Positions 403 to 34,605 of a stretch of DNA of 64,000 nucleotides are shown in pieces. The notes under the pieces were generated by a model. That model worked only from the letters and a program-made list of their open reading frames with translations. It did no database searches and was not told where the DNA came from. The stretch's first letter is position 1. Every line of letters begins with the position of its first letter. The DNA is from an uncultured Chloroflexia bacterium (GTDB lineage Bacteria; Chloroflexota; Dehalococcoidia; DSTF01; JACRBR01): positions 2,689,366 through 2,753,365 of the forward strand of contig OY969567.1 in assembly GCA_963701135.1 (NCBI GenBank), written 5' to 3'. The position numbers and the translations under genes were made by a program.

Positions 403-981
403 TCAGAACGTCCACCACTCGTACCACTTGCCGAGCGGCAGGACCATGACGACGAGGTCGTGTTTGTGGCCGCGCTGGTCGCTGAAGTAGTCGGGGATGA
501 CGGCGCTGCGCAGGAAGCCCAGGCGCTCGGCGGCGGTGATCGCCTCCTGCTCGCGGTCGGCGACGGCCTCCATGATCACTTTCTCCAATTCGGCGTCGGC
601 GGCGATGTCGCAGAGCTGGCGGATCATGGCGCTGCCGAGGCCGCGGTTGCGCCAGTCCGGGTGCACGACGACGCGCACCTCGCCGTTGTGGGAGCGGGCG
701 CCGGTGCGGGAGCGGACGAGGACGGCATTGCCGACGACGTTTGGGCCGTCCCAGGCGAGCAGCGGCAGCGCGCGGTCGTAGTCCAGGCGTGCGGCCCAGC
801 TCTCGAGCACCCTCGGCGACGTGACGTCGTCCTTCAGGAAGTAGCGGTCGTCCTCCGGCACCTTCAGGAAGAACTCGAGCAGCTTGTCCTTGTCGCCGGG
901 TTCCATGGGCTTGAACACGACGGACGAGTTGCCGCGGAGTTGCACCGTGCGCGGGAACGCCTCGAGCTTGTAGATGGCCAT
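403..981 (-). CDS. GNAT family N-acetyltransferase
   Basis: ORF 403-1047 holds the acetyl-CoA binding motif HPDWRNRGLGSAM. The likely start is ATG 981 (MAIYKLEAF), preceded by AGGAG. Confidence 0.8.
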   Translation of the reverse strand: MAIYKLEAFPRTVQLRGNSSVVFKPMEPGDKDKLLEFFLKVPEDDRYFLKDDVTSPRVLESWAARLDYDRALPLLAWDGPNVVGNAVLVRSRTGARSHNGEVRVVVHPDWRNRGLGSAMIRQLCDIAADAELEKVIMEAVADREQEAITAAERLGFLRSAVIPDYFSDQRGHKHDLVVMVLPLGKWYEWWTF

Positions 982-1082
982 GTCGTCTCCTTTTTCGCTC
1001 TCTGCGATGGTATCGTAGTCGCGCCGCGCGCTAGCGACCACCGCCAATCGGCATCAGCGGGAGGTGCGAACTGACTCGAAAC

Positions 1083-2913: not shown

Positions 2914-3399
2914 ATGGGGGCCGAGGCACGGATCGCGGAGCTGGGTGTGACGCTGCCGGAGGTGGCGAAGCCGCGGTGGGCGTATGTGCCGGCGGTGCGC
3001 ACGGGCAACCTGCTGTTCGTGTCGGGGCAGATCGGAACCGAGAACGGCCGCGTCATTCACCCGGGCAAGCTCGGGCGCGAGGTCAACGTCGAGCGCGGGC
3101 AAGAGGCGGCGCGGGCGTGCGCGATCTCGGCGCTGGCGATCGTGCGGAAGGAGCTGGGGTCGCTCGACAACGTGGCGCGCGTCGTGAAGCTGACGGTGTA
3201 CGTGGCATCGGCCGAGGGGTTTACGGACCAACCGACGGTCGCGAACGGCGCGTCGGATTTCCTGCGCGACGTGTTCGGCGAGGCGGGCCTCGGCGCGCGG
3301 GCGGCCGTCGGCGTGGCGGAGCTGCCGCTCGGCGCGAGCGTGGAGGCGGAGTTCGTGTTTGAGGCGGCGGCGGCTGGCGCCGAGAACAGAGAGCAGTGA
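2914..3399 (+). CDS. RidA/YjgF family protein
   Basis: This is an intact 161-aa ORF with GAGGAGG upstream of the ATG. It shows YjgF-type sequence (LLFVSGQIG and a C-terminal ELPLGASVEAEFVFE). The last codons (ENREQ*) are repeat-like. Confidence 0.8.
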   Translation: MGAEARIAELGVTLPEVAKPRWAYVPAVRTGNLLFVSGQIGTENGRVIHPGKLGREVNVERGQEAARACAISALAIVRKELGSLDNVARVVKLTVYVASAEGFTDQPTVANGASDFLRDVFGEAGLGARAAVGVAELPLGASVEAEFVFEAAAAGAENREQ

Positions 3400-3425
3400 G
3401 CAAAGAGCAGAGGGGCGAGCTACGG

Positions 3426-3655
3426 CAAACAGCAAACAGCAAACAGCAAAAGCGTCCGCGGACAACGATGGAACACAACAGACAACAGACAACAGACAAC
3501 AGACAACAGACAACAGACAACAGAGGTCAGTACAGCAAACAGCAAGCGGCAAACAGCAAAGGGTGCGGGCCGAAGCTGATAGCTGACAGCTGATAGCTGA
3601 TAGCTGATAGCTGATAGCTGACAGCTGACAGCTGATAGCTGATAGCTGACAGCTG
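3426..3655. repeat. Largest composite heptamer array (CAAACAG; ACAGACA; CAGCAAA; GCTGATA/GCTGACA)
   Basis: Four consecutive blocks with a 7-nt period fill the gap between convergent genes. The array ends on the base before the stop codon of the minus-strand gene at 3656. Confidence 0.9.
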
Positions 3656-5578
3656 TTACACCAACGGCGGGTTGTCGATGAGGGCGAGGTCTTCTTCGGT
3701 CAGCAAGTCGCGGAGGATGGCGGGGAACTTCGGGGGGTAGAGGTCGTAGAGGTACGCGTACATCTCTTCGATCATGCCCGCCGTGTCTTCGATGCACATC
3801 CACGCGCGCTGGATCTCGTTGATCGCGAGATACGCTTCCTTGCAATGCTCCTGCAACAGCGCGAGGATGCGGCCGATGGCGCGCGCATCGATGGTGCAGC
3901 TCGTGATGAACTTCGTGTTCTCGGCCTGGAGCTGACGCGCGAGGGCCGAGGCGCGGCGGCGGCGCTGCTCGGCGTTCCGGAGGCGCTGTTCCGCCTCCGC
4001 GCGCTTCTCCTCGCTCCCGGCGCGCGCGCCAAGATGCTCGATCCCCTGACGCAGGTACGCGACGCGCGTGTCGACGAAGATCTCGAGCACGCGGTCGAGG
4101 CCGCGGAGCGCGCGCTCCGGCAGCGGCCGGAATTCGCGTGACGCACGCCCGGCGCGCTCCGGCTGCTTCAGCTCGTCGCGCAGGATCTCGCAGATGGCGA
4201 GGCCGTGCATGTACGGCCACTTGTGGCGCGCCTCGTCCGGCTGCCAGCCGAAGTTGCAGGCGCGCTGCATGACACGCATGTGCATCGCGAGCTTTGCGTC
4301 GTCGTCGAGGCCGGTGAAGTCGTAACCGCGCTCATCGACCTGCGCGCCGGTGAGCGGGATCTCGAGCGGATGGCCGAAGCTCGCGAGCAGCGGCTTGAAC
4401 GCATCGGCGATGAAGCGGCCTGGCTCCCAGAAGATGAACGGCCAGCGGCGGAACACCTCGATGTCGTTGTCGATGCCGCGGAACGGGCCGGCGTGCAGCG
4501 GCGGGTAGTGGCCGTCGCTGCGGAGCACCAGGCGGATCTCCGGCGCCCATGAGACCTGGTGGAAGCGCATGTGCGGCAGCGGCGCGGCGCGCGCGCGCAG
4601 GTCGTCGATGTACTCGTCGGGCGTGACGAAGCGCACGTCCGCGATGCCCTCGTTGCGGACGGCGGTCCACGCATCGCCGAGGATGTCGAGCGCCTGTTCG
4701 CCGAAGTCCATCAGCTCCAGGTCCTGGATGTAGAGCAGCAGGCCGCCGCCGGGTGCGGCTTCGAGCGCGCGCGCGCAGCACCTGCGTGTACTCCGCGACG
4801 CCCTGCTCGCGCGTGATCGGGAAGGCGACCGGCCGGCCGTTGCGGTACTCCTCGTCGAGCACGTGGTATTTGCCGAGGATGTAGCCCTGCGGCGCGAGCG
4901 CGCTCCGGCTCGGCATTTCGTGATCGGCCGCCAGATCTCCTGCGAGATCGGGAAGTGGCGCGGCAGCGCAAGCAGGCCGTCATCGATCGTGAATGCGCCG
5001 TACGCGGGGTCGGCGCCTTCGGCGAGGCCGTCGAACTCGTAGCGCGCCTTCGCGGGGCTGAGGTTCGGGAAGATGACGTACTCCATGCCCGCGCGCTTGA
5101 AGCCGCCGAGCTTGTGCGCGTCGATCGAGCCCTCCATCGGGAACGCGCCGCGGTGGCGGGGCTCGGGCGCGCGCATCACGTCGCGCAGGAACTCGCGGTT
5201 GAGGCGCAGCTCGTCGGCGAGCTCATCGTCCGTGAGCATGGCGATGTGGGTGTGGAACGCGTTGCCGTAGACGGGGTAGAGGGCGCCGGAGCGGTACGCC
5301 GCGCCCAGGCGGTCGAAGGTGCGCGGCATGTAGCGGCGCACCTGCATCAGGATCTCGTTCGTCGCCTCCAGGCAGACGGGTGCGCCGAGCGCCTCGCCGA
5401 AGTCGATGAGGTTGGCGTAGATGTCGCGGCCGGCCTCGGCGCGCTTCTTCACCCAGTTATCGTTGCCGACGGCTTCGCGCCGCACCTCGTCATCGCGCAG
5501 CGTGTCGAGCACGCGCTCGGGCAGGTCCCAGAGCGGCTCCTGTGCGTGGAAGGCGAGGATGACGTGTACCGAGTTCAC
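3656..5578 (-). pseudogene. GH57-like glycoside hydrolase with a long C-terminal domain; two compensating frameshifts
   Basis: ORF 3656-5653 reads well except for about 4760-4925, where the plausible sequence (PSRSALAPQGYILGKYHVLDEEYRNGRPVAFPITREQG) sits in the frame of ORF 4332-4916. The start is uncertain (GTG 5578 or ATG 5653) because the 5' end runs into a heptamer array. Confidence 0.65.
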
Positions 5579-5693
5579 AGTTGACAGTTGACAGTTCACA
5601 GTCGACGGTTCGGGCGACGATGGCCGCGAGAGCGGCGCCCAGCTTCGGAGCAACCCGCCCTACAACCTACAACCTACCACCTACAACCTACGG
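5573..5693. repeat. Two heptamer arrays (TGACAGT-type 5573-5604; CTACAAC-type 5658-5693)
   Basis: The first is gttcacagttgacagttgacagttcacagtcgac. The second is ccctacaacctacaacctaccacctacaacctacgg and ends one base before the stop codon at 5694-5696. Confidence 0.85.
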
Positions 5694-7075: not shown

Positions 7076-8772
7076 TCACGATAACGCGCGCTCCGGAGCC
7101 GAGGCTATGCCCTCGCGCTCGGCGAAATCCGCGAAGTCTATGTCAGCGAACAGCTTGTCCCGTTCGATGATGTCCGCGAGGAACGCCGTCGTCGACCTTG
7201 CCCGCCTCGATCTGGCCGGCGAGGCGGTTGAAGCGCTCGACGTGCTCGGCGAAGCGCAGCTCGGCGTACTGCGCGCGCCTGGCCGGTCGTGACCAGGAAC
7301 GGCCAGTCGCTGGATTCGAGCAGCAGGAGCTCGCGCGCGAGCTGCGCCAGCGCCGCGGCCATGGCGCCGTCGCGCCGCGTGGCGCGCGACGATCTCCTCC
7401 ATGCGGCGCTGGGCGTCGTTGATGACCGGCCACATCCACGCGGTGTCGGCGTTGTGCCAGGTGAAGTGCGTGCCCTGCTGGCCCCACGAGCCCTCGGGCA
7501 GCGCGACGACGTCCTCCGGCGGGTGCTCGCGCACGAACTGCGCGGCGCCCGTCAGGTCGACGACGTCGCTCTTCGCGAGGTGGCGCAGGACTTCCTGGAG
7601 CCACGTGACGCCCTCGAACCACCAGTGGCCGAACAGCTCGGTGTCGTACGCGGCGCTGACGATGCCGTAGCGTCCGCTCGACGCCGCGGTACTCGCGCTG
7701 ATCTGGTCCTCGACGAGCGAGGCGAAGTGGCGCGCGTGCTCGTGCACGCGTGTCGAACGCGACGCCGGGGTCGTAGAGCTCCTTGTCGCCGAGGTCGACG
7801 CCGGCGCCGGTGACGCGCCAGTAGTGCAGGCCGGACTCGCCGTCCTTCTTGTGGAACTCGCGGTAGGCGAAGTCGCCGGGGTAGCCGTGGTCGGCGGACC
7901 AGACCTGCAGCCCGGTGGTGACGTTGCGGCCGAGCGCGGCCACCCGCGGCTGCGCCACCCAGTACGGCTGGAACGTCGTCTTGTGCGTGGGCTCGCTGTG
8001 TGCCGTCAGCGGGCACGGTGTAGCGCTTCGGGATCTCGCCGTACGGGCCGATGGCGTCGCCGGCCGCCTTGCCGACGGGCTGGCCGCCGAGGATCGCGTG
8101 CGTCTCGACGAAGAACACCAGCAGCCCCTGCGCCGCGAGGAACTCCTCGAGCCCGGGCTTCCGCTGTGCCGTCGCCGGCGATGTACGCCGGCCGGTACGC
8201 GCACTCCGGCAGCCAGAACGACTCCGGCTTGCGGCCGAAGTGGCGCTCGTACGCGCGGACGCCGGTGCGCACCTGGCCGTAGATCGACGAGTCGCGCTCG
8301 AACAGCGGCAGGTAGCCGTGGGTCGCGGCGCTCGTCGCGATCTCGACGTAGCCCTTGTCCTGCAGCCAGCGGAAGGCGCCGATGATGTCGCGGCCGAAGC
8401 GGTGGCGGAACTGGTCGAGCAGCCACGCGAAGCGGTCGCGGTAGAACGCCGCGACGGCCGCGCGCGCCGGTCGCCGCCGCGCTCGAAGCGCGCGACGTCG
8501 CTCGACGCGCGCTCGTGCAGGTCTTCGAGATACGCCTCGAGGTTGGCGAGCACGTCGGCGTCGGCGAGCTGTTCGGCCAGCACTGGCGTGATGCTGAGCG
8601 TGAGCCGATAGCGCACGCCCTCGGCCGCGAGGTCGTGCAGCGCCGAGAGGAGCGGCAGGTACGTCTCGGTCGCTGCTTCGTGGATCCACTCCTCGCCGTG
8701 GGGCCAGCGGCCGGCCATGCGGGCGTAGGGCAGGTGGGAGTGCAGCACGAACGTGAATGCGCCCTGCTTCAT
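7076..8772 (-). pseudogene. GH57-type 1,4-alpha-glucan branching enzyme, multiply frameshifted
   Basis: The N-terminus MKQGAFTFVLHSHLPYARMAGRWPHGEEW is the GH57 branching-enzyme signature. Homologous stretches continue through ORFs 8006-8689, 7552-8772, 7143-8426, 7076-7747 and 7138-7362 in different frames. Confidence 0.7.
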
Positions 8773-8807
8773 GCGCTCTCCGTGCTGAAGTTGTTCATGC
8801 GCTCAGT

Positions 8808-10102
8808 TTACACCGTGTACGGGAAGTGCTTCTCCGTCGCGCGGATGGTGGTGCCGCTGGGGATGTAGCCGTCCTCCGTCTCCGCCTCCGCTGTGACGTT
8901 CGGGCCCGATGACGCAGTTCCGGCCGATGCGGACGTACGGCGGCAGCTTCGCGCGCTTGCCGATGATCGTGATGCCGCAGTTGACGATGTCCGGGCGCTC
9001 GTGGTTCGGCGACCAGTCGTCGCCGTAGCCGACGTACGCGTTCTTGCCGACGAGCACATCCTTGTCGATGATGGACCGCTCGACGATGGCGCCGGATTCG
9101 ATGCGGCAGTCGTCGAAGATGATGGAGTCGCGGACGACGGCGCCCTCTTCGACGTACACGCCCGGCGAGAGCACCGAGTGCTCGACGTGGCCGTTGATGA
9201 TGCAGCCGAGGTCGAGCAGCGAGCGCGACAGGTACGCGCGACGGCCGACCTTGGCCGGCGGGAAGCCGGTCACGCGCGAGCGGATACGCGTGTCGGGGTC
9301 GTACATGTTGAGCGCGGGCAGGTCTTCGAGCAGGTCCATGTTGCCTTCGTAGTAGGACTCGATCGTGCCGACGTCGCGCCAGTAGCCGTTGAACGCGTAG
9401 CCGAAGGCGCGCGCCTCGGGGTCCTCGACCATGGCCGGGATGATGTCGCGGCCGAAGTCGTGCGTTGAGTCGCGCCGCGAGTCGGCGACGAGCTGCTCGA
9501 TGAGCGTCTGGCGGTTGAACACGTAGATGCCCATGGAGATCAGGTTGGCCTTCGGGTGGTCCGGCTTCTCGTCGAACTCGACGATGCGGTCGTCGTCGTC
9601 GGTGGTGAGGACGCCGTAGCGGTGCGCCTCTTCCATCGGCACCTGGTAGAGCGGGCACGGTGACGTCGGCGCCCTTCGCCAGGTGGTAGGAGATGAGCTC
9701 GTCGTAGTTCATCTTGTACACGTGGTCGCCGGCGAGGATGAGCACGAGGTCGGCGCGCGTCTCCTCGAGGAAGTAGAGGTTCTGGAAGACGGCGTCGGCG
9801 GTGCCGCGGTACCAGTCGGAGCTTTCGCGGCCGAGGTACGGCTGGAGCAGCGTGACGCCGCCGCCCTGCCGGTCGAGGTCCCACGGCCGGCCGATGCCGA
9901 TGTGATCGTTGAGCGAGCGGGGCCGGTACTGCGTAAGCACGCCGACGCGCGTGATGCCGGAGTTGACGACGTTGCTGAGCGCGAAGTCGATGATGCGGTA
10001 GCGGCCGCCGAAGATGACCGCCGGCTTGGCGCGCTCCTCGCTCAGGACGCTCAGCCGGTCGCCCTGGCCTCCTGCCAGGATCAGTGCCACGACTCGCTTC
10101 AT
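8808..10102 (-). pseudogene. glgC: Glucose-1-phosphate adenylyltransferase with at least 2 frameshifts
   Basis: [29 protein letters not shown] starts at ATG 10102. The middle part lies in ORF 8803-9642 ([21 protein letters not shown]). The C-terminus lies in ORF 8808-9059. One shift sits at a CCC run near 9650. Confidence 0.8.
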
Positions 10103-10116: not shown

Positions 10117-11419
10117 CTAGTGGCGCACGCGCTGGGTCTGCGGCCGGCGCTCTGCGCGGCAGCTCCCGTCCTGAGAGCCGACAGAAAATGTTCAGGTAGT
10201 CTCGAAGATAGCGCGTGGTGAGGAAGTTGTCCCGCACGAACTCCACCCCCCGGCCCCCATCTGGTCGGCCTCGTCCCGGTTGTGCAGCAGGAACAGGAGC
10301 TTCTCCAGCGCACTCGTCCGCGGTATTGACCAGGAATCCCGTCTTGCCGTTCGACGATCTGCAGCGGGATGCCGCCCACGTTGCCCGCGACCACTGGACG
10401 TCCCTTCCATAAGGCCTCCGAGACTACCAGTCCGAAGCCCTCGCGCACGCGACTTCTGGATGACCACGCGCGCCGCCGCTGGAACGCGTTCACCTCGACG
10501 TTTCCCACGCCGTTGAGGTTGGAGAGGATGTGGATGTCGAAGTCCTCGCCGGCACGGCGCACCGTGCGCTCGTACCAGTCCCAACCTTCCGGGTCGTCGC
10601 TGGCCATCGAGGCGATCATGCACGAGCTGCAGCTCCGGGAACTCGCGCTTGGCCGAGCGGTAGACGTCGATGACGCCGAGCGGGTCCTTCCACGGGTCGA
10701 AGCGCGAGATCTGCGTCGATCATCGGCCGCTGCGGGTCGACGCCGTAGCGCGCGAGGATCGCGCTCGACCGTCTCATCCGGCCAGGTCGACGTTCTTGGG
10801 GCTGAGCGGGTCGATCGCGGGCGGCACGCAGAAGATCTGCGGGCCGCGCAGGTCCTCCTTCACGTAGTCCGGCAGGGTGAAGATGGCGCCGTCGTACCGC
10901 TCGATGTGGGGACGCAGGAGGTCCCACACCTGCACCTGCGCGTCGGTCAGGTCGATGTGGCAGCGCCAGACCCACTTGCCGTCGCGGTGGCCGAGCCGCT
11001 CTTCGACGAACGTCGAGCATGGCCGCCGGCTGCGGGTCGTGGATGACGACGAAGTCGTACTCCTCGTCGAGCATGTCGGCGTTGAGCTGGTTGTAGTTGA
11101 GCCAGATGTCCCGCATCGCGGGCGTCCAGTCGTAGTACATGCCCTGGAGGCTGTTGTGCATGGACTTGGTGACGTTGAAGAACTCATCGGCGCCGCTGAT
11201 GACCTGCCAGTCGGCCCGGAGGCCGATGTCGTTCATGAGCGGGATCAGCGTGGCGAGGATCTCGGCGACGCCGCCGCCGAACGCGGTGGCGTTGACGTGC
11301 AGGACGCGCGCGCCCTTGAGCCGATCGGCGAGGCGCAGGATCTCCTCCGTGCGCTCATCGCCGATGACGCCGCGGTAGGCCTCGATGGACTTGGGCGTCG
11401 TGGGAACGGTTCCGAGCAC
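10117..11419 (-). pseudogene. treT: TreT-type trehalose glycosyltransferring synthase (GT4), at least 6 frameshifts
   Basis: IEAYRGVIGDERTEEILRLADRLKGARVLHVNATAFGGGVAEIL, FFNVTKSMHNSLQG, WRCHIDL and PPAIDPLSPKN match the archaeal TreT sequence as I recall it. The pieces are spread over ORFs 10616-11656, 10774-11187, 9540-10619, 10192-10623 and 8795-10246. In the last frame there is no stop before glgC. Confidence 0.65.
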
Positions 11420-12660
11420 TATGGCGCCGTCCTGTGCAACTCGTTCAGGATCTGAAGGTAATCCTTGAGATACCTCGTGATTAAGAAGTGATCCGCTACA
11501 TGGCGGCGGCCGTTTTCCCCTAATTTGCGGGCCGTCTCCCGGTCGGTGAGCAGCCGCTCGATGGCGGCGGCGAACTCCTCGGTCGTGGTCGCCGTGAGGC
11601 CGGTGACGCCATCGATCACCTGCTCGGTGAGCCCGCCGGCGGGGGCGACGACGCACGGGCGCTCCTTCCAGAGCGCGTCCGAGACCCAGATCCCGAAGCC
11701 CTTGCGGAGCCCCTTCTGCATGATCACCGCCGCCGCGCGCTGGAAGACGTTGAGCTCGACGTTGCCCAGCTCGCTGCCCACGGACACCACGTAGGCGCCC
11801 GGCTCGTCACGGCAGCGCTCGGCGAGCTGGTCGTAGCAGGCACGGCCCGAAGGGTCGAGCGGCTCCGTCGTAAGCACCATGGCGAGCTGCAACTCCGGAT
11901 GGCGATCGCGGACCATCGCCCAGGCGTCGACGGCGCCGCAGAGGTCGCTGGCGGTGTCGCAGGGCGAGATCTGGCACACCATGGGCCGGTCCGGGTCGAT
12001 GCCGTACTGCTCGAGCACGGTGCGCACGAGATTATCGGGCAGCGGCATGTTGCGCGCGCTGTTTGGATCGATCGCCGGCGCGACGATGTGCGTCGGGAGC
12101 GAGATGTCGCCGCGGGCGAAGTGCGGCGCCGAAAAGATCGCGCGGTCGTACTTCTCGACGTGCGTGCGCAGGAGCATCCACACATCCGCCTGGGCGGACG
12201 AGAGGTCGAGGTGGCAGTCCATCAGCCACTTCGCGCCGGAGTCCGGGACGAACGAGCGGATGGCGAGCGGCTGCGGGTCGTGCACGATGATGACATCGAA
12301 CGGCTCGGTGAGCAGAGCGGCGTTCATGGCGGCGTGGCTGAGCCACGTTTCGGTCATGTCGGGCGTCCACGGCACGAAGATGCCGCCGAGCGCCTGGTAC
12401 ATCGCGCGGTCCACGGCCGCCGCTTCTTCGGACGCGCGGACGAGCTGCCAGTGGACATCGATGCCGAGGTCGGCGAAGAGAGGCACGGAGGAGTTGAGCA
12501 GGTCGGCGGTGCCGGTACCGAAGCGCGTAAGGCTCAGGTTGAGCACGCGTAGGCCTTCGATCGGGTGGGCGAGCGCGCGCAACTCATCGATGGCCGGCTG
12601 GCCGGCGACATCGACGAGATCATCGAGCGCACGATGCGAAACCGCGAGTGTGCCGTACAT
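11419..12660 (-). CDS. TreT-like GT4 glycosyltransferase, intact paralogue
   Basis: It is 413 aa from ATG 12660, with GAGGAGG upstream. It shares the TreT-type architecture (VIIVHDPQP, CHLDLSS, APAIDPNS, NVFQRAA). Its stop overlaps the GTG start of the decayed copy (TAGTG). Confidence 0.75.
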   Translation of the reverse strand: MYGTLAVSHRALDDLVDVAGQPAIDELRALAHPIEGLRVLNLSLTRFGTGTADLLNSSVPLFADLGIDVHWQLVRASEEAAAVDRAMYQALGGIFVPWTPDMTETWLSHAAMNAALLTEPFDVIIVHDPQPLAIRSFVPDSGAKWLMDCHLDLSSAQADVWMLLRTHVEKYDRAIFSAPHFARGDISLPTHIVAPAIDPNSARNMPLPDNLVRTVLEQYGIDPDRPMVCQISPCDTASDLCGAVDAWAMVRDRHPELQLAMVLTTEPLDPSGRACYDQLAERCRDEPGAYVVSVGSELGNVELNVFQRAAAVIMQKGLRKGFGIWVSDALWKERPCVVAPAGGLTEQVIDGVTGLTATTTEEFAAAIERLLTDRETARKLGENGRRHVADHFLITRYLKDYLQILNELHRTAP

Positions 12661-12744
12661 ACGGACCTCCTCATGCGTGTGGGTGCGGAATAAGAAAAAG
12701 ATTCCCGAGGCATCGCCCGGACCATCGGCCTGGGGAGAGCCTCT

Positions 12745-12940
12745 CTCTGCGCCTACGGGGTTAGCTGCCGGGTTCGGGCTTGAGAGTGCCCTACTCGTCC
12801 GCTCGACGAGATTCACCCCGCCATCCCGAGCCTACCAAGCGGCTCCTTGCGGAACCGTTGCGGCGGCTGTGCCGCGGGCATCGGGACGGTAAACCTGGTT
12901 CCCCCGTTTCGCGTCCCTGACGGACGCGAATTCGGCATGC
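12745..12940 (-). promoter_or_regulatory. ydaO/yuaA-class (c-di-AMP) riboswitch in the 5' leader of the TreT-like gene
   Basis: The minus-strand RNA contains GCCGAAUUC, ACGGGGGAACC, GGGGUGAAUC, GUAGGGC and CCCGAACCCGGCAGCUAACCCCGUAGGCG in the order and spacing of the ydaO consensus. A U-rich stretch follows before the RBS. Confidence 0.7.
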
Positions 12941-12952
12941 TCCTTGAGTTTC

Positions 12953-14250: not shown

Positions 14251-14296
14251 AGCTATCAGCTGTCAGCTATCAGTCTGTCAGCTGTCAGCTATCAGG
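14251..14296. repeat. Heptamer array (GCTATCA / GCTGTCA)
   Basis: agctatcagctgtcagctatcagtctgtcagctgtcagctatcagg begins 2 nt after the oxidase stop codon. Confidence 0.85.
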
Positions 14297-14405
14297 TACG
14301 GCATGGGGCGAAGGGCGGCGGGATGTTCCCGCCGCCCTTCCTTCGTAAGTCGAGCGGCCGTACCTCACCTCCGGCCTTCGGCCACCTCCTCTCCGCCGGG
14401 CGGAT

Positions 14406-15203
14406 ATGAGGCTCAACCCACGACGGTGCGCGACATCACTCACCCCGCCGCGCGTCAGCCTTATGATGCAGGCGATGACATCGGCTGCCACGTTGCGGAT
14501 GATCGATGAGTTCTGGGCCGAGCGGCTGGGCTGCACGCCAGGCGAGTTGTACGCGCAAACGGTGATCGTGCGCGAGCATCACGGCAGTCTTGCGGGCTAC
14601 CACGGCGTGTACGCGTACCGGCGCGACGGCGGCGCATGCATTGTCTCTGCGCCGGCGGACTACGTGGCGCGGCTGCGCGGCGCTCTGGCGGCGCTGACGC
14701 CGGAGCGCGCGTTCGACGTCGAAGCGCTGGCGGGCGCGCTCGGGGATGAGGTCGAGCGCGTCGTCGGGCCAGCGCGCATCGCCTACGCGGACTCCGGCGA
14801 CTTCAGGCGCGCGGATGACGACGCGGTGCGGCTGCTCGTCGCGGGGGACGACGCCGCGCTCCGCGGCCTCGCGGCGTCGTGCGGCGAGACGGCGTGGGAG
14901 CACGGCGGCATCGAGTTCGGCCGCGCGCCAGTGTTCGGCGCGTTCGAGCGCGGCGGACTGCTGGCGGCGGCTTCATACACGCCGTGGGGCGACCACATCC
15001 TGCACGCAGGCGTGGTCGCGCATCCGGTGCATCGCGGCAGGGGGCTGGGGCGCGCGGTGGCGAGCGCGGCGTCCGCGCACGGGCTGGCATCTGGCCGCGT
15101 GATGCAGTGGCAGACGCTGGAATCGAATACCCCGTCGATGGCGATCGGGCGCGCGCTCGGCTACCAGCCCTACTGCCGGACGATCGCCGTGCGGCTGCGA
15201 TAG
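14406..15203 (+). CDS. GNAT-like acetyltransferase (start uncertain)
   Basis: This is an intact ORF. The C-terminal half carries HPVHRGRGLGRAVASAAS, typical of the GNAT acetyl-CoA site. Alternative in-frame ATGs exist downstream of 14406. Confidence 0.6.
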   Translation: MRLNPRRCATSLTPPRVSLMMQAMTSAATLRMIDEFWAERLGCTPGELYAQTVIVREHHGSLAGYHGVYAYRRDGGACIVSAPADYVARLRGALAALTPERAFDVEALAGALGDEVERVVGPARIAYADSGDFRRADDDAVRLLVAGDDAALRGLAASCGETAWEHGGIEFGRAPVFGAFERGGLLAAASYTPWGDHILHAGVVAHPVHRGRGLGRAVASAASAHGLASGRVMQWQTLESNTPSMAIGRALGYQPYCRTIAVRLR

Positions 15204-15211: not shown

Positions 15212-15372
15212 GAGACAACAGACAACAGACAACAGACAACAGACGGGGTGGCCACAGCAAACAGCAAACAGCAAACAGCAAGGGCGCCAGAGCCCTGATA
15301 GCTGACCGCTGATAGCTGATAGCTGATAGCTGATAGCTGATAGCTGATAGCTGACCGCTGAGAGGCTGACAG
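15212..15372. repeat. Composite heptamer array (GACAACA; CAGCAAA; GCTGATA/GCTGACC)
   Basis: It uses the same three unit families as at 2697 and 3426. It fills the gap between convergent genes and ends on the base before the stop at 15373. Confidence 0.9.
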
Positions 15373-15822
15373 CTACTCCCGCAGCGCCGCGGTCGCCGGC
15401 AGGCGGAGCAGGCGCGCGACGGCCATCGCGAGGGCCCAGACGATGAGCGCCGTGAGCGCGCCGGCGGTGACGCCGAGGAACAGCGTGTCGACGACGTTCA
15501 CCTCCGCATCGCTGCCGCGCGCGTTGAGCGCGGCCGTCAGCGCGAACGCCACGAACGGCGAGATGACGACGAGGAACGACGCGGTCGCGACGTCCGGCAG
15601 GTCGGCCTGGCGGACGAGCAGCAGCACGGTGACGGCCGACCAGGCGATGGACGCACCCCACATCGCGAACAGCACCGCCGCATCAGCGTTGCCTGTGCCG
15701 GTCGTGCGCGGCGCCACGGCGACGGCGCCGGCGAGCTGGGCCGCGAACATCGCGGCACCGGCCGCGAGGAGCACCTTCCTGAGCGGCGTGAGGGGGAGTT
15801 GCGGGCCGTCTTCGAGCTGCAT
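15373..15822 (-). CDS. Small integral membrane protein
   Basis: About 149 aa from ATG 15822 (MQLEDGPQLPL) with four hydrophobic segments. The start overlaps the upstream stop (TGATG). Confidence 0.5.
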   Translation of the reverse strand: MQLEDGPQLPLTPLRKVLLAAGAAMFAAQLAGAVAVAPRTTGTGNADAAVLFAMWGASIAWSAVTVLLLVRQADLPDVATASFLVVISPFVAFALTAALNARGSDAEVNVVDTLFLGVTAGALTALIVWALAMAVARLLRLPATAALRE

Positions 15823-16349: not shown

Positions 16350-17126
<777 letters not shown>

Positions 17127-17384
17127 TACTACCTGCCGCCCGGAGGCATCTGGAACAACATCCGTAACGCGCGGCTCTGGCGCATGCGGTCGCACTACCA
17201 CCGCGAGCGTGCCAGCGAAGGTGGCGCCGTCGAAATAACTCCCGAAACCGCGGAATTCGTGCGCGACCCCGCCCGGGTCCCGGGTTCAAAGTTCTAGGTT
17301 CTCGGAAGGCTTGACAAGTCCAAGAAGACAGCGCATTGTAAGCGCGCCGGTATCGTCGATCTCCATACTGATGATGGCGCTTTA

Positions 17385-17935: not shown

Positions 17936-19402
17936 ATGCCAGGTAGAGTCGTCAGATTCGTCTTGACAGCCGCACTGGGCGTCTTGATTGCGATTACGAT
18001 TCCGACTCCCGCTCGCGCGGACCACGGGGACGGTCACCTCCAGGACTGGTATGCCGATCCCGGTTCGCAGGACGGCTTGCAGCAGGGGCTCATCGCTGGA
18101 ACGTCAATAACGGTATGTAGTTCCGAGTTTCCCTCCTCCACGCCCACAGCAGTTGCCCGTTGGAATGCTCCGTCGGCATTGAATTTCCAAGCGTTCACTT
18201 GGGTGACTTCTTGCCCGGGTGCCACTGTGAGTGTCACGACCAGCGGCTTTTACACGTTCTGCTTGTCGGGTGATCACGCATGTGTGCGCCCCACCGACCC
18301 GATCGTCACCGGCGATCCCGATTATGCGTTGGTCAACCCCACGCTCGTCTTGATGAATCCAACGGTGCATGTGGACGGCGGCGATCACACGACGAGAGAT
18401 GTAACACATGAATTGGGCCACGTCCTGGGTCATGCCGACTATACTGGTTGCCCGGCCGGAAACACGCTGATGGATACGAGCGAGACCTGCTGGTTCGAAA
18501 CCCCCCAGCCGCTCGACGTGAGTAATTACGCCGCGGCGTACTTGGCCGACGCTGTCGCCGGACTACAGGGCACATCGCCATCGCTGGGCACGGTGTCGCT
18601 CACGTGGGACGCGAGCAATGTGCACAACGAGGACGGGTTCGTGGTCCAGCGCGACGGCGTCCTCGTGGGAAGCGCACTCAAGAATGCGGCCGGCTGGCTA
18701 GGAACCAATCAACCGGGCGGGTCGCACACCTACACGGTGATCAGCCACACGAACGCGTGGTGCCTTGCATTCGGCGGCTACTGCGGATCCGTCTCCTACA
18801 ACGTGAATGTCCAGGGAACCGTAGACTACGAGCCGACCGGCTTCACGCCCAACCCGGCATGCGGTACGTGCAATGAGGGCGGCTCCAAGTCCTTCACCAT
18901 CACCGTCCGCAATAACGGGAATATGACCGCACCGGCGTCAACGGTCGTCATGAAGTTCAATGGACAGACGGCGCCCAACCCGTATGGCGGCGTCTGCAAC
19001 CTTCCGGAGATCCCGGCTGGGGCGACGCGCTCATGCACCAACATCAACCCAGTGTCTCTGACCTTCCAGGGAGGCCCCATCACCCTCCATGCGGACTACA
19101 ACAACGTCGTCCCAAACGAGTCGAATGAGGCGAACAACAACTCCCCTACCATGGGGAACATGTATGTCGTCCCGAACGCGCCCTCAAACCAGCGTGTCTG
19201 CCCTACTTGCGATCTCTACGGTTATAAAGACAACTCTGTCATCGAGACCGGCTTCACCATCAAGATTGAGCGCCGCTCGGGTGGGTGCGGCAGCTCGGGC
19301 TGGTTGACTGTGAGCACGATCAACCACGGCCCCAAGTCCGGGACGGATGATGTCTACTACTACAACTTTACATCGGGCTACTGCTGGCGCATCAAAGTCT
19401 AA
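17936..19402 (+). CDS. Secreted zinc metalloprotease-like protein with FN3-like and CARDB-like C-terminal domains
   Basis: This 488-aa ORF has a signal-like N-terminus. HELGHVLGHAD fits HExxHxxGxxD (the snapalysin M7 type). It also has the FN3-like stretch GTVSLTWDASNVHNEDGFVVQRDG and the CARDB-like stretches SFTITVRNNGNMTA and NESNEANN. Confidence 0.6.
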   Translation: MPGRVVRFVLTAALGVLIAITIPTPARADHGDGHLQDWYADPGSQDGLQQGLIAGTSITVCSSEFPSSTPTAVARWNAPSALNFQAFTWVTSCPGATVSVTTSGFYTFCLSGDHACVRPTDPIVTGDPDYALVNPTLVLMNPTVHVDGGDHTTRDVTHELGHVLGHADYTGCPAGNTLMDTSETCWFETPQPLDVSNYAAAYLADAVAGLQGTSPSLGTVSLTWDASNVHNEDGFVVQRDGVLVGSALKNAAGWLGTNQPGGSHTYTVISHTNAWCLAFGGYCGSVSYNVNVQGTVDYEPTGFTPNPACGTCNEGGSKSFTITVRNNGNMTAPASTVVMKFNGQTAPNPYGGVCNLPEIPAGATRSCTNINPVSLTFQGGPITLHADYNNVVPNESNEANNNSPTMGNMYVVPNAPSNQRVCPTCDLYGYKDNSVIETGFTIKIERRSGGCGSSGWLTVSTINHGPKSGTDDVYYYNFTSGYCWRIKV

Positions 19403-20388: not shown

Positions 20389-21663
20389 CTACATGGCTGC
20401 TGCGATCCGCGCGATGCCGCCCATGAACGGCAGCAGCACCTCGGGCACGTCGATCGATCCGTCGGGCTGCTGGTAATTCTCCATGATCGCGATCATCGTG
20501 CGGGGGAGCGCGAGGCCGGAGCCGTTGAGCGTGTGGACGAACTCCGGCTTCGCGGCGGGCTCGCGGCGGAAGCGGATGTTCGCGCGGCGCGCCTGGAAGT
20601 CGGTGCAGTTGCTGATGGAGCTGATCTCCAGCCACTCGCCGGCGCCCGGCGCCCACACCTCGATGTCGTACGTGCGCGCGGCGTTGAAGCCGAGATCGGC
20701 GGTGCAGATGTTGACGACGCGGTAGCGGAAGCCGAGCGCGCGGCAGACGTCGAGCGCGTCGTCGAGCATTGACTCCAGCTCTTCGGCGGATTTCTCCGGC
20801 TCGCAGAACTTGTACATCTCCACCTTGTCGAACTGGTGGCCGCGCTTGATGCCGCGGACGTCGCGGCCGGCGCTCATCTTTTCGCGGCGGAAGCAGGGGG
20901 TGTAGGCGACGTAGTGGATCGGCAGCGTGCCTGCCTCGATGATCTCGCCGCCGTGGATGTTCGTCAGCGGGACCTCGGCGGTGGGGACGAACCAGTAGTC
21001 CTCTTCGGCGTCGTGGTAGAGGTTGTCGCGGAACTTCGGCAACTGGCCGGAGTGCCACATCGTCTCTTCCTTGACCATCGCCGGCAGGTACATCTCCGTG
21101 TAGCCGTGCTTGTCGATGTGCAGCTCGAGCATGAAGGCGATGAGCGCGCGCTGGAGGCGGGCGCCTGCGCCCTTGAGCACGTAGAAGCGGCTGCCGGAGA
21201 GCTTCGCGCCGCGCTCGAAGTCGATGATGCCGAGCGCCTCGCCCAGCTCGTAGTGCGGCTTGCGCCACGGGTCGCTGTACTCCTCGCCCGACTGCTGGGC
21301 GACGCTGTTGTCGTCTTCGCCCTCGCCGTATGGCGTGGCCGGATCGGGGATGTTCGGGATCTCCATCAGCAGCGCATTGAGCCGCTCCTCGGTCTCGCGC
21401 AGCAGCGGCGTCAACTCGTCGATGCGCGACGATACGCCTTTCGTCGCGTCGATCATGCGCTGGCGCTCGGCGGGGTCTTTCGCGGCGCCGATCTTCTTGC
21501 CGGCGGCGTTCTGCTCGGCGCGCAGGCGCTCCGTCTCCGACAGCAGGTCGCGGCGGCGCACGTCGAGCGCGATGATCTCGTCGAGCGGCGCGAGCGTGTG
21601 GCGGTCGGCCAGCGCCTTGCGGACGGCGTCCGTGTGCTCGCGGATGAACTGCATGCTCAGCAT
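20389..21663 (-). CDS. serS: Seryl-tRNA synthetase, intact
   Basis: This 424-aa ORF has an N-terminal coiled-coil arm and class II core motifs ([43 protein letters not shown]). Confidence 0.95.
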
Positions 21664-21667: not shown

Positions 21668-21730
21668 GTAGGTTATAGGTTTTAGGGGCTAGGGGTTAGG
21701 GGATTGGAAGTTAGAGGTTAGAGGTTGGAG
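21668..21730. repeat. Heptamer array (GGTTAGG / GGTTAGA family)
   Basis: gtaggttataggttttaggggctaggggttaggggattggaagttagaggttagaggttggagg overlaps the last codons and stop of the NUDIX gene. Confidence 0.8.
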
Positions 21731-22208
21731 GCGCCAAGCGCACCAGCTCGATGGCCTGGAGGGCGAGGACGCGCACGTCCTCGGGCACGGGGATGTCGAC
21801 GCCGCAGGAGGCGACGGGCAGCGGGTCGTTGCGGCGCAGCTCGGCCTCCGTCACCCAGATGAAGCCGTGGTCACCGTCCGGGGCCTGGTGCGGCGCGCCG
21901 TCGACGGGGCGCAGGGCGTACGACATGTCGATGTGCTGGTGGGGCCCTTCGGGGACGTCGCCGCAGATGATGACGAGAGGCGGCGGGATTTGCGGGGGCT
22001 CGGCGAAGGGCAGCGGGGCGACGTGCGGCACGACCTCGGCGGTGATGCCGGTCTCCTCCAGCACCTCGCGCACGACGGCCTGCACGGGGTCCTCGTCGGG
22101 GTCGATGTGGCCGCCCGGGGGCAACCACAGCCGCACCTTCTTGTGCCAATGCAGCAGCGTGCGGTCGTCATCGACGAGGAAGCCTGTGACGGTGAAGTGG
22201 CGTTCCAT
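21711..22208 (-). CDS. NUDIX hydrolase
   Basis: It starts at ATG 22208 (MERHFTVTGFLV). The Nudix box is GGHIDPDEDPVQAVVREVLEETG. Confidence 0.8.
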   Translation of the reverse strand: MERHFTVTGFLVDDDRTLLHWHKKVRLWLPPGGHIDPDEDPVQAVVREVLEETGITAEVVPHVAPLPFAEPPQIPPPLVIICGDVPEGPHQHIDMSYALRPVDGAPHQAPDGDHGFIWVTEAELRRNDPLPVASCGVDIPVPEDVRVLALQAIELVRLAPPTSNL

Positions 22209-22315
22209 GTGGGGAGTGTAGCGGGTTGATCGTTGGTGGTTAATCGTTAGAGTGTCCTCCCCGGGCGCTGCGCTGGATGAGGACGGCATGCGGAGAGCAG
22301 TCCGGTCTGACGCGG

Positions 22316-34492: not shown

Positions 34493-34605
34493 GTTGTAGG
34501 GAGTAGGTTGTAGGTTGTAGAGAACAGCAAACAGCAAACAGCAAGTGCCAACGCCACGTGATGGCGCGGCGGCGGCCCTACAACCTACCCCCTGCCACCT
34601 ACAAC

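Follow-up and report, generated by a model that had tools for sequence, protein, structure and literature searches.

The gap between the RidA gene and a glycoside-hydrolase-like gene in this stretch of DNA (the window; 64 kb, 68% G+C) is occupied by tandem arrays of several units, all of them 7 nt long. This raises the question of what kind of element these arrays are and which process makes and keeps repeats of this one length. The original prediction held that strictly heptameric arrays, reusing a small set of units, fill intergenic gaps throughout the window, and that a common mechanism rather than independent slippage lies behind them. It also took the host not to be a cyanobacterium, which was borne out: the relatives found through SerRS are Chloroflexota MAGs, and relatives carry labels of Chloroflexi or Dehalococcoidia MAGs. 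An exact look-up found no record of the multicopper oxidase or the SerRS of the window.

Period and units of the arrays

TRF and the sequence itself confirmed a tandem array at every locus that had been listed. The flagged span held four of them: (GCAAACA)x3.7 of the CAGCAAA family (3425-3450, T-free), a perfect, T-free (ACAACAG)x7.1 (3475-3524), a partly degenerate (ACAGCAA)x4.1 (3532-3560) and (AGCTGAT/AGCTGAC)x11.7 (3574-3655), units being given on the forward strand unless a gene sense is stated. Across the 64-kb window, ~30 tandem arrays with 7-nt units were found in ~20 gaps, a very high density of approximately one array per 2-3 kb. TRF returned 29 period-7 rows with 2.7-11.7 copies each; exact copy numbers may be imprecise, because the window genes carry many frameshifts relative to relatives, as is typical of unpolished long-read assembly.

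The excess of period 7 on which the original prediction depended was present. A custom tandem counter found 22 period-7 arrays in the window (705 nt in total, 12 canonical units) versus none of period 5 or 8-15, eight of period 6 and ten of period 3, and first-order Markov simulations of the window gave a chance expectation of 0.3 period-7 arrays. The excess was assessed on the window and ~130 kb from relatives. It was seen again in 840 kb from other phyla, chosen solely for containing one (AGCTGAT)n array, where 451 arrays had period 7, 12 period 8, 39 period 6 and 7 period 5; AGCTGAT aside, the units were lineage-specific. The word "strictly" did not hold. TRF showed period-8 arrays at 41154-41187, (CTGACCGA)x4.2, located 9 nt past the stop of ORF 41197-41436(-), and at 46971-46990, formed by GACTGACC; the latter belongs to a stretch of GACTGACC and CTGACCG units of period 8/7 (46952-46990, GGTCAGT in the gene sense) overlapping the stop of gene 46989-47903(-). 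A relative carries an octamer array as well, (GCTGACCC)n.

The chaining of unit families was also confirmed, with CAGCAAA, ACAGACA and GAGAGCA found jointly at 2696, 3382 and 15213 and AGCTGAT next at 3574 and 15295. The first block, whose arrays are all T-free, begins at the final base of the PhoD stop codon with (ACAGCAA)x3.1 (2696-2717), followed by (AACAGAC)x5.9 (2729-2769), whose intermediate units lead into (CAGAGAG)x6.9 (2766-2813); over 2729-2813 the units grade from AACAGAC through GACAGAC and GACAGAG to AGCAGAG. A degenerate (GAGAGCA)x4.4 (3382-3412) overlaps the RidA stop codon (3397-3399), a decayed array that coexists with the perfect 3475-3524. The third block consists of T-free (AGACAAC)x4.6 (15213-15244), 9 nt past the stop of the GNAT gene 14463-15203(+), T-free (ACAGCAA)x4.0 (15254-15281) and (CTGATAG)x11.3 (15295-15374), which abuts the stop of gene 15373-15822(-).

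A restriction to three letters was rejected as a special property of the units: those with three letters or fewer make up 50-60% of the distinct units, and random 7-mers give ~49% by our own calculation. A common CAG/CTG or GCTGA core was enriched (z = 4.1, 2.2 and 3.5), which is a tentative lead, as mutational kinship with the units used for selection confounds the result.

The arrays belong to the bacterial heptanucleotide long SSR/STRR class, already described, and are not a new kind of element, since they combine tandem 7-nt units, an excess of that period, non-coding location, several unit families and variation between relatives. Other classes did not fit. The units are contiguous and without spacers, which excludes a CRISPR array; they are 7 nt long and head-to-tail, and the linkers of the composites shared by self-BLAST align poorly, unlike REP/BIME elements or MITEs. 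AGCTATC, CAGCAAA, ACAGACA and GAGAGCA lack G runs and GTAGGTT has only GG, as opposed to G-quadruplex repeats. Phase-variable contingency loci are not matched either: the neighbouring genes are housekeeping or metabolic (SerRS, GDH, PhoD, RidA, multicopper oxidase, ABC-2, glycoside hydrolase), most arrays follow stops and only 41400-41434 lies inside an ORF. In Rfam, the sole match of the window was a c-di-AMP riboswitch, with none at the arrays, and Pfam gave no informative matches for the small ORF adjoining arrays or for the unassigned ORFs. Separate from the arrays, a REP-like hairpin (CGCGGGCTGAAAAGCCCGCG) occurs in 6 copies in the window. AGCTGAT arrays are predicted to form hairpins (-45 kcal/mol), with 3574-3655 giving a long hairpin on either strand, and the T-free and G-free arrays are predicted to be unstructured; such heterogeneity speaks against a single function, in RNA or DNA, common to all arrays.

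Position relative to genes and polarity

Most arrays lie in gaps, as proposed, and all but one are in non-coding DNA or limit their overlap to a stop or start codon. Stop codons are overlapped by 3382-3412, 34475-34520 and the arrays starting at 46028 and 63077, and a start codon by 5572-5610. The exception to the intergenic location is (GTAGTTC)x5 (41400-41434) inside the 5' end of ORF 41197-41436(-), which reads GAACTAC in sense and codes residues 2-13, with GGAGG 5 nt ahead of the ATG. The arrays in the window adjoin stop codons mostly and start codons less often. By our own count, they are present in 6 of 8 convergent and 1 of 8 divergent gaps of the window, and two cross-phylum counts gave 20 vs 8 and 20 vs 3 arrays in convergent and divergent gaps, respectively; taken by themselves, the annotated relatives show no significant difference (5/15 vs 3/17 gaps).

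Downstream of the GNAT gene 403-1047(-), (CACCTCT)x3.3 (370-392; AGAGGTG in the gene sense) lies 10 nt and (AGAACCT)x5 (266-302; AGGTTCT) ~100 nt past the stop. The (CCTACAA)x4.7 array at 5659-5691 reads GTAGGTT directly past the TGA of the upstream minus-strand gene. C-free (GTAGGTT/GTAGGGA)x6.6 (34475-34520) extends over the TAG stop of gene 32903-34492(+), which it provides; beyond T-free (AACAGCA)x3.1 (34523-34544), it faces (CCTACAA)x4.7 (34577-34609), which reads GTAGGTT in the sense of the minus-strand glutamate dehydrogenase (GDH) gene and overlaps its stop, and the two facing arrays are predicted to pair into a long stem. The TAG stop of gene 45387-46031(+) is overlapped by (GTAGTTG/GTTGGTG)x4.3 (46028-46060), followed by a GC hairpin at 46080-46099, and C-free (AGGTTGT)x4.4 (52894-52924) lies 6 nt past the ABC-2 permease stop. 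At 63077-63115, (TAGGTGT)x2.7 and then (TAGGTTC)x3.6 overlap the TAG stop of gene 62075-63079(+) and precede a bidirectional terminator hairpin (63116-63152), around which they are predicted to pair with degenerate CTACAAA-type units (63160-63185) that are G/T-rich in the sense of gene 63186-63515(-) and abut its stop. Within the AGCTATC family, array 3574-3655 reads AGCTATC in the sense of the glycoside-hydrolase-like gene 3656-5578(-), at whose stop it ends; (AGCTATC/AGCTGTC)x6.3 (14251-14295) lies 1 nt past the multicopper-oxidase stop and is followed by a GC hairpin terminator (~14310-14343); and (AGCTATC)x3.3 (38654-38676) occupies a co-directional gap of 43 nt, where it provides gene 38666-39193(-) with its TGA stop.

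At start codons, (AGTTGAC/AGTTCAC)x5.6 (5572-5610) overlaps the start of gene 3656-5578(-). TAGGGG and TTAGAGG units (21668-21731) occupy the gap from the NUDIX stop to the SerRS ATG (21663); this leader is G-free in the gene sense (CCTCTAA, CCCCTAA, AACCTAT), has no Shine-Dalgarno and is predicted to be unstructured as RNA. Between (AGAACCT)x4 (41128-41155; AGGTTCT in the gene sense) and the ATG at 41100 there is likewise a G-free leader without Shine-Dalgarno. The sole array of the window in a divergent gap, T-free (AACAGAG/AACAGAC)x5 (50567-50601), lies antisense to a minus-strand FolC-like gene, 10 nt ahead of its ATG (50557).

These arrays show a polarity: one strand per family points 5' to 3' away from the nearest ORF, namely the G>C strand for skewed units and the AGCTATC strand for the AGCTATC family. 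Read in the gene sense, 11 arrays past stops in the window are G/T-rich, and those ahead of starts (SerRS) have no G; in the relatives, 9 arrays fit the rule, 3 are ties and none is against it. Almost all skewed arrays in the window and relatives thus conform, and the T-free CAGCAAA/ACAGACA family departs from the G>C version. Across many phyla, (AGCTATC)n was oriented accordingly in 67 vs 18 cases overall and in 40 vs 10 at stop codons, and for other skewed units the split was 64 vs 33 next to stops and 37 vs 16 next to starts, all of these cross-phylum tests using crude ORF calls.

The polarity is not a G-quadruplex property because GTAGGTT, AGCTATC, CAGCAAA and ACAGACA cannot form such structures. 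Transcription direction was rejected for AGCTGAT (28 vs 29 in co-directional gaps), and so was replication direction, as the G/T-rich arrays number 7 vs 6 per strand in the window and follow the gene strand. GTAGGTT supplies stop codons in all frames; this fails as a general role because the preferred sense of AGCTATC (40 vs 10) lacks stops and the T-free units fail too.

Turnover in relatives and origin of the arrays

The same gaps in relatives hold arrays with altered units or copy numbers, decayed arrays or none. The flagged gap has 256 nt of arrays here, versus 144 nt with a different array in relative L247, whereas in L249 it measures 82 nt and is array-free; its arrays are lineage-specific. 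The 2696-2813 block is missing from the orthologous PhoD-RidA gap of L244, which measures 38 nt as compared with 217 nt here and has the same Shine-Dalgarno; both gaps suggest that the arrays are dispensable. Array 15295-15374 has an ortholog with identical flanks in L122, with 11 units here versus ~4.6 there, the expansion being distal to conserved ORF-proximal units. Elsewhere the units were replaced and the position kept, as at the GH-640, SerRS and NUDIX starts and the GDH and ABC-2 stops. In L244, the start that array 5572-5610 overlaps here carries the homologous (AACTGTG)x7.6, and 5659-5691 has a homologue, (GGTTGTA)n, in L247; 34577-34609 is orthologous to (GTAGTTC)x4.9 in L122, and the position orthologous to 52894-52924 holds (GTTGGAT)n in L249. 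Upstream of SerRS, L122 retains a decayed remnant only. Between two strains 99.87% identical, the sole indel was one unit of the sister (GCTGACCC)n array, and no heptamer copy-number change was seen between strains 99.6-99.9% identical, so the heptamer arrays are not extremely unstable.

Two apparent cases of copying were seen within the window. Composite 3475-3655 can be aligned with 15213-15374 for 166 nt (85%), with the same module order, copy numbers and variant-unit positions, and the two look like copies of each other. By self-BLAST, 52901-52992 (array and start of a small ORF) is duplicated at 53199-53290 with 88% identity, and (AGGTGGT)x3.4 (53199-53222) belongs to the second copy. Judged from these alignments, copying between gaps would explain the recurrent unit chains better than convergent generation.

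We consider the arrays to be microsatellites that arise and perpetuate themselves by slippage with an inherent preference for 7 nt, that spread through ectopic recombination and that are filtered according to their position and orientation (probability approximately 0.55). Strand slippage in replication or repair would create the arrays and keep them repetitive, with the 7-nt register strongly favoured. Point mutations in a unit would be amplified in place, so that unit families drift and replace each other, and ectopic recombination or gene conversion would occasionally carry copies of whole composites from one gap to another, producing the recurring unit chains. Arrays would survive only where a gain of 7-nt multiples is harmless, mainly in the untranslated stretch from stop to terminator and sometimes in the leader just ahead of a start without Shine-Dalgarno. 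A strand filter would then retain those whose G>C or AGCTATC strand runs 5' to 3' away from the adjoining ORF. The units themselves would need no sequence-specific function, and any effects would stem from composition, as in G-free leaders and arms of terminator stems. Slippage agrees with the gradual change of units inside arrays, with copy numbers that differ among relatives and with the decay of arrays. The claim of a common process therefore stands in part: the period is shared by unrelated units, with 451 period-7 arrays in the 840-kb set, but "rather than independent slippage" was too strong because the common mechanism proposed in the literature is slippage of just this kind, biased towards 7 nt. 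Slippage alone leaves unexplained the ~40-fold fall from period 7 to 8 and a polarity set by ORF ends, not by replication or transcription direction. The absence of heptamer copy-number change between the near-identical strains, the non-significant difference between gap types in the annotated relatives and the crude ORF calls of the cross-phylum tests also count against this reading.

Some gaps hold an array in every lineage sampled (GH-640 start, 4/4) or nearly so (SerRS, 3/4) with completely different units, which could mean selection for the presence of an array there and weighs against the reading above. The arrays might be selected cis-elements acting in the transcript, an explanation that we regard as unlikely on the whole. 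They could form a lattice for a single-strand binder with a ~7-nt footprint, such as a cold-shock domain protein or ribosomal protein S1, or, in a weaker version, composition-defined spacers, with G-free leaders serving initiation without Shine-Dalgarno and 3' spacers or arms tuning termination or the processing by RNase III; the number of units would set the level of expression, as it does for Haemophilus hmw. The five positions kept despite full unit turnover speak for this, as do the array-abutted starts (SerRS, NUDIX and GH-640 among them), which lack a Shine-Dalgarno where other genes have GAGGAGG, the unstructured SerRS leader and the facing arrays, predicted to lengthen terminator stems to -62 to -77 kcal/mol. 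However, many arrays are missing from orthologous gaps with the same genes and the same Shine-Dalgarno, arrays decay, more than 12 unrelated units of opposite structural properties coexist, and most arrays are past stops, including convergent gaps with no downstream gene. We also know of no array-binding protein in any organism. Precedents exist in the hmw 5'-UTR, where (ATCTTTC)n works via a long hairpin and RNase III (PMC12721329), in the proposal of S1, Csp and CsrA as TAACTGA binders (PMC4679880) and in reporter effects in Nostoc (bioRxiv 10.1101/2022.06.06.494920). The polarity shared by several phyla (also PMC4692102) speaks for this explanation too.

The combination of a 7-nt register and ORF-end polarity, with unrelated units in at least ten phyla, may instead point to a dedicated, undescribed molecular process and not to generic slippage plus selection. 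We hold this to be improbable; candidates could be a conserved protein or polymerase step measuring seven nucleotides, or directional growth outward from ORF ends.

It is quite improbable that the arrays are polar transcription insulators, in which C-rich, G-poor RNA entering an ORF would load Rho and halt antisense or untranslated transcripts, the exiting RNA being G-rich. The G-C skew per 40 nt is +4.6 past stops with arrays and -11.3 ahead of starts with arrays, as this explanation would have it; it is ~0 without arrays, and a polarity inherited from a general skew of leaders and trailers was thereby rejected. Rho loading fails as a single rule for the T-free families, which are C>G in sense past stops, and for AGCTATC, with its opposite G/C polarity. 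A terminator scan showed no enrichment of terminator-like sites (12 vs 8.0 +/- 3.3), and the arrays lie upstream of ordinary hairpin terminators, not in their place; on the same grounds the arrays were rejected as intrinsic terminators. To our knowledge, cyanobacteria lack Rho, which counts against insulation given the polarity of the Nostoc arrays. In favour of insulation, the G>C strand leaves the ORF at both ends in the window, in relatives and in the published arrays, Nostoc included (PMC4692102). Neither G-quadruplex structure nor Rho loading, stop-codon content or replication direction holds up as a general account.

A dedicated enzyme adding heptamers, templated or reiterative, to 3' ends at breaks or nicks beside ORFs has slightly less to recommend it and is very doubtful. 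The favoured strand would always point off the ORF and pairs would face 3'-to-3', as found in 6 of 7 inverted neighbour pairs and likewise at 34475/34577 and 63077/63160. A polarity that follows the ORF end whatever the orientation of the gene (also PMC4692102), the sharply specific period and the distal expansion relative to L122 are in keeping with it. No such gene was found near arrays in the window, dozens of units per genome would require many templates, and the gradual in-situ drift of units fits slippage better. Furthermore, we know of no heptamer-adding enzyme in bacteria. Assembly or sequencing artefacts, which the frameshift-split window genes might suggest, can be dismissed, as relatives assembled independently from short reads (NCBI, ENA, JGI) have homologous arrays in shared flanks, and comparable arrays occur in isolate genomes such as those of Moorena, Trichodesmium, Vibrio and Pseudoalteromonas.

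Comparison with known repeat systems

REP/BIME elements are imperfect palindromes of 20-40 nt mobilised by RAYT transposases. The arrays resemble them in many dispersed copies, preference for 3' ends and convergent gaps and dependence on orientation, but consist of head-to-tail heptamers. The STRR of cyanobacteria (Calothrix/Nostoc) comprise several tandem heptamer families dispersed in the non-coding DNA of one genome. The resemblance to STRR that had been noted was upheld, both in these features and in (AGCTGAT)n, which is also present in Moorena, Okeania and Trichodesmium; the host here is a Chloroflexota bacterium of 68% G+C and not a filamentous cyanobacterium. STRR are not the only comparable system, as had been thought, since heptanucleotide SSRs are known from many bacteria, including Xanthomonas, Nostoc, Beggiatoaceae and Chloroflexus aurantiacus; STRR themselves are cited in PMC4692102.

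In Haemophilus influenzae, the (ATCTTTC)n of hmw1A/hmw2A is a phase-variable SSR in the transcribed leader (PMC12721329, PMC8262952). It pairs with a complementary arm rich in G to give a long hairpin, which the predicted stem of the facing arrays 34475/34577 resembles, but hmw is a single adhesin contingency locus of a pathogen, whereas the arrays here are found throughout, adjoin housekeeping genes and mostly lie at 3' ends. The TAACTGA arrays of marine Beggiatoaceae lie a few nt upstream of starts without canonical ribosome-binding sites (MacGregor 2015, PMC4679880), like the arrays ahead of the SerRS, NUDIX and GH-640 starts; there, a single unit dominates and is found mostly before starts, and here many units mostly after stops. 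In the same phylum, Chloroflexus aurantiacus has (GATAGRA)n satellites, one unit family being reported (Subirana & Messeguer 2019, PMC6749651). They are heptamer-derived and resemble GATAGCT, the complement of AGCTATC; that report is without position or polarity analysis.

According to the summaries of Mrazek (2007), heptanucleotide SSRs are the dominant long-SSR class in many bacteria (PMC4679880, PMC4692102), the commonest among repeats of 5-11 nt and scattered in taxonomic distribution, with polymerase slippage and a 7-nt contact length proposed as the cause (PMC4679880). The dominance of period 7 is the same here, and the local density in the window is very high. Heptanucleotide arrays are among the commonest unexplained repeats in bacterial genomes, and the window adds a very dense example from an uncultured Chloroflexota bacterium of high G+C. 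Arrays mark gene ends, can supply stop codons or N-terminal residues and seem to mediate duplications and insertions, effects which matter for annotation and assembly of such genomes.

The closest description is that of Rehm et al. (2015), in which Xanthomonas (GGGAATC) and Nostoc (GGGGAYT) have hundreds of intergenic heptamer arrays per genome (PMC4692102). The G-rich strand is coding 0-50 bp past stops, often overlapping the stop, and non-coding just ahead of starts; the arrays are depleted between divergent ORFs, and the same gaps in related species hold arrays of other length or sequence (PMC4692102). Polarity rules and a polymerase-slippage proposal are given in PMC4692102 and PMC4679880. 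The arrays of the window are alike in their tandem 7-nt units, intergenic location, G-rich coding strand past stops, depletion in divergent gaps and gap-wise turnover. They differ in that most units are not of the G4 type, many unit families share one genome and the phylum is another. The window thus adds evidence that the published polarity rule extends to units incapable of forming G-quadruplexes and, across many phyla, to (AGCTATC)n.

Period, composition and position of the arrays

Tandem Repeats Finder reported 29 period-7 rows across the 64-kb window, and every array locus named in the original prediction was present among them. With a uniform counter, the window contained 22 arrays of period 7 (705 nt), 8 of period 6, 10 of period 3, and none of period 5 or of periods 8 to 15; first-order Markov simulations gave 0.3 period-7 arrays per window as the chance expectation. 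The description of the arrays as strictly heptameric and intergenic needed correction, since two have period 8 (41154-41187 and 46971-46990), several run into a stop or start codon, and one is internal to ORF 41197-41436. Direct reading of the span 3426-3655 gave (GCAAACA)x3.7 at 3425-3450, (ACAACAG)x7.1 at 3475-3524, (ACAGCAA)x4.1 at 3532-3560, and (AGCTGAT/AGCTGAC)x11.7 at 3574-3655. Compared with the genome, the units are richer in A+T (window G+C, 68.2%), and they grade into each other inside arrays, as at 2729-2813.

The window, whose contig is 3.6 Mb long, encodes a seryl-tRNA synthetase (SerRS) with homologues, 82-91% identical, from MAGs labelled Chloroflexi, Chloroflexota, or Dehalococcoidia. 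Relatives' proteins (GH57, NTP-transferase, a glycosyltransferase, peptidase M16, and glutamate dehydrogenase [GDH]) mapped to the window in 2-5 frames. Split genes, intact in relatives, lie at 7085-8784, 8811-10102, 10120-11419, 24269-25536, 34612-35851, and 36535-38046. This points to indel errors of a long-read assembly or to many genes being pseudogenes, which makes the exact copy numbers in the window uncertain. The arrays themselves are genuine: homologous arrays with shared flanks were present in independent short-read assemblies.

Arrays in the window adjoin ORF ends, at a distance of -4 to +10 nt from the stop codon at 15 stops: 403(-), 2696(+), 3399(+), 3656(-), 14249(+), 15203(+), 15373(-), 34492(+), 34606(-), 41197(-), 46031(+), 46989(-), 52887(+), 63079(+), and 63186(-). 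Wherever a GC hairpin terminator exists (14310-14343, 46080-46099, and 63116-63152), the order is stop codon, array, hairpin. By our own count, arrays occupy 6 of 8 convergent gaps versus 1 of 8 divergent gaps; in the latter, 10 nt separate the array (50567-50601) from the ATG of its FolC-like neighbour. The few starts preceded by arrays, among them that of SerRS (ATG at 21663) and the one with its leader at 41100, are without Shine-Dalgarno sequences; other genes have GAGGAGG. A G-free leader, also without a Shine-Dalgarno sequence, CTACACTCCC(C)AC(C)ATG in the sense of these (-) genes, is common to a NUDIX gene (22209-22225) and a metallo-beta-lactamase-fold gene (41101-41120); an orthologue in a relative (L121) carries CTACACTCACCACGATG. 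Also observed were a c-di-AMP riboswitch (RF00379, 78.7 bits, 12736-12947(-)) upstream of a glycosyltransferase/trehalose-synthase-like operon (11419-12660(-)) and a HicB-family antitoxin gene (59420-59824(+); Pfam PF05534, E = 4e-12).

Polarity and predicted structure

For the GTAGGTT, AGGTTCT, GTAGTTG, and AGAGGTG families, the G/T-rich strand was the sense strand in 11 arrays following stops in the window, distributed over both DNA strands, and the opposite orientation was found in two G/C-skewed arrays, both beside start codons. G-C skew per 40 nt was +4.6 after array-bearing stops and -11.3 before array-bearing starts; it was approximately 0 in array-free flanks, indicating that the skew belongs to the arrays. 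Where gene calls for relatives were available from databases (ten loci), 9 arrays had the G>C strand's 5′ end towards the closest ORF boundary, 3 were ties, and none was against. Exactly this rule has been published for GGGAATC and GGGGAYT arrays of Xanthomonas and Nostoc, which are also depleted between divergent ORFs (PMC4692102).

Based on crude ORF calls, this rule extends across phyla, including (AGCTATC)n, the opposite-strand reading of AGCTGAT arrays. Among the loci listed, 67 of 85 such arrays had their nearer ORF 5′ of the AGCTATC strand (p = 8e-8), and stop-codon ends alone, which are free of ORF-calling artefact, gave the same direction (40 vs 10). Across phyla, inverted neighbour pairs were arranged 3′-to-3′ in 6 of 7, and in all remaining skewed units the strand with G>C exited the ORF in 64 versus 33 at stops and 37 versus 16 at starts. 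The T-free family (CAGCAAA/ACAGACA-type units) differs in that the T-free strand is mostly sense (20 vs 7 in co-directional gaps among the cross-phylum loci listed). Polarity as a G-quadruplex property was ruled out, since neither AGCTATC nor GTAGGTT can form one.

Folding predicted T-free arrays and the SerRS leader to be unstructured and (AGCTGAT)n to form hairpins of -45 and -40 kcal/mol on the two strands; thus, the families share period, position, and polarity, and by these predictions do not share a fold. Facing arrays in convergent gaps were predicted to pair and lengthen the terminator stem to -59 to -77 kcal/mol. In L244, another relative, (AACAGAC)x3.9 (21479-21505) after a phosphoribosyltransferase stop is followed, after 15 nt, by its reverse complement (TCTGTTG)x2.6 (21521-21538), and the pair would form a perfect hairpin.

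Turnover and probable copying between gaps

Orthologous gaps showed four behaviours: copy-number change, unit replacement, decay, and absence. After a 149-aa gene, identical flanks (TAGCTGTC...AGCGGTCAGCTATC) enclose 11 units in the window versus approximately 4.6 in L122. The unit is replaced after the GDH stop (GTAGGTT in the window, GTAGTTC in L122), after the ABC-2 stop (GGTTGTA in the window, GTTGGAT in L249), and at the start of the glycoside-hydrolase-like gene GH-640 (AACTGTC in the window, AACTGTG x7.6 in L244, AGGTTCT x13 in L247, and CCGACGA x5 in L249). Upstream of SerRS, L122 keeps only a remnant. The GH-640/RidA gap, to which the span 3426-3655 belongs, holds 256 nt of arrays in the window; in L247 it measures 144 nt and has a different array, and in L249 it measures 82 nt and has none. 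Between PhoD and RidA, the gap measures 217 nt in the window versus 38 nt in L244, with the Shine-Dalgarno sequence unchanged. Heptamer arrays did not change between strains 99.6-100% identical. Between L247 and L248 (99.87% identical), the sole indel in 9 kb was one unit of an octamer array, (GCTGACCC)n (L247 5305-5397), which abuts an AhpC/TSA gene start.

The composite at 3475-3655 (ACAGACA, CAGCAAA, then GCTGATA) aligns with 15213-15374 over 166 nt (85%): the modules follow in the same order, copy numbers are similar, and variant units sit at matching positions, but alignment of the linkers is poor. Region 2696-2802 is similar to 3429-3544, and 52901-52992, comprising an array and a small-ORF start, is duplicated at 53199-53290. 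From these shared composites and the duplicate, the recurring unit chains are best explained by copying between gaps.

Several other repeats were observed. A conserved 62-aa small ORF (MAIRKP...DHYLYGTPK), which gave no Pfam hit, is found next to arrays in the window (52968-53155(+)), L122 (~9216-9400), and L123 (~8780-8900). A truncated frame (MRKVFADT..., by eye perhaps a PIN-like start) follows the ORF in the window, where the ORF is flanked by duplicated junctions of stop plus GGTTGTA array. A 138-nt unit (x3.2, 95% identity, 46510-46948) contains in each copy the hairpin CGCGGGCTGAAAAGCCCGCG, which occurs 6 times in the window (further sites at 27360, 46080, and 59916) and at 2003 in L121, and resembles a REP-like element or a terminator. 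Two direct copies of a 120-nt sequence (97.5% identity, 26975-27094 and 30831-30950), which is the 5′ part of a small gene, bracket ~3.7 kb of poorly coding sequence, an arrangement that resembles an insertion with target duplication or else a fault of assembly. A partial SerRS copy (residues 158-423; 16356-17154(-)), 95.9% identical in nucleotides to 20395-21190(-) of the full gene, brackets with it a ~3.2-kb insert carrying a CARDB-domain gene (17936-19402). PMT_2-type glycosyltransferase paralogues in tandem (31263-32873 and 32903-34492(+); 74% nucleotide identity over 1.5 kb) correspond to a single gene in L122 and L123. Among unit sequences of the window and the collected loci (L001-L243), CAG/CTG and, more loosely, a GCTGA/TCAGC core were enriched (z = 4.1, 2.2, and 3.5 vs letter-shuffled units), an enrichment confounded by kinship with the units on which the choice of loci was based.

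Origin and generality

The shared period, position, and polarity point to a common generating process with a positional and orientational filter rather than a unit-specific function. We favour, at a probability of roughly 55%, slippage combined with drift and recombination: slippage with an intrinsic 7-nt bias would create and keep up arrays, concerted drift would alter units through time, ectopic recombination would carry composites from gap to gap, and arrays would survive in the unconstrained stretch beside ORF ends. The common mechanism originally proposed is thus retained as a common process, but its opposition to slippage is not. The main rival, to which we give about half that credence, is that selection maintains the arrays, either as leaders or spacers defined by their composition or as a lattice on which a protein with a 7-nt footprint would bind; array position is kept despite unit turnover and Haemophilus hmw offers a precedent (PMC12721329), but many arrays are absent from relatives. 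Rho-type transcription insulation is improbable, failing for the T-free and AGCTATC families and being inapplicable to Nostoc if cyanobacteria, as far as we know, are without Rho. A dedicated directional enzyme, also improbable, would account neatly for polarity but has no support beyond it.

The 7-nt period is found well outside this lineage. The exact (AGCTGAT)x3.9 pattern occurred at no fewer than 120 loci (at least 120) in species-representative genomes, those listed including Cyanobacteria, Gemmatimonadota, Acidobacteriota, Chloroflexota, Bacteroidota, Vibrio, Pseudoalteromonas, Myxococcales, and Planctomycetota. Among the matches listed, at loci chosen for one (AGCTGAT)n array each, 451 arrays had period 7, compared with 12 at period 8, 39 at period 6, and 7 at period 5, with lineage-specific co-occurring units, which bears out the prediction of one period common to unrelated units. 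Metagenomic contigs with (CAGMMAA)x4 span 20-70% G+C among the matches listed. The 7-nt specificity is therefore a cross-phylum phenomenon, in agreement with the literature: according to PMC4679880 and PMC4692102, Mrazek 2007 reported heptanucleotides to be the commonest long SSRs, and there are descriptions from Xanthomonas and Nostoc (PMC4692102), from Beggiatoaceae (PMC4679880), and from Chloroflexus aurantiacus (PMC6749651). The window adds a new host lineage to a known class, of which its arrays are a real, dense, and well-behaved example.
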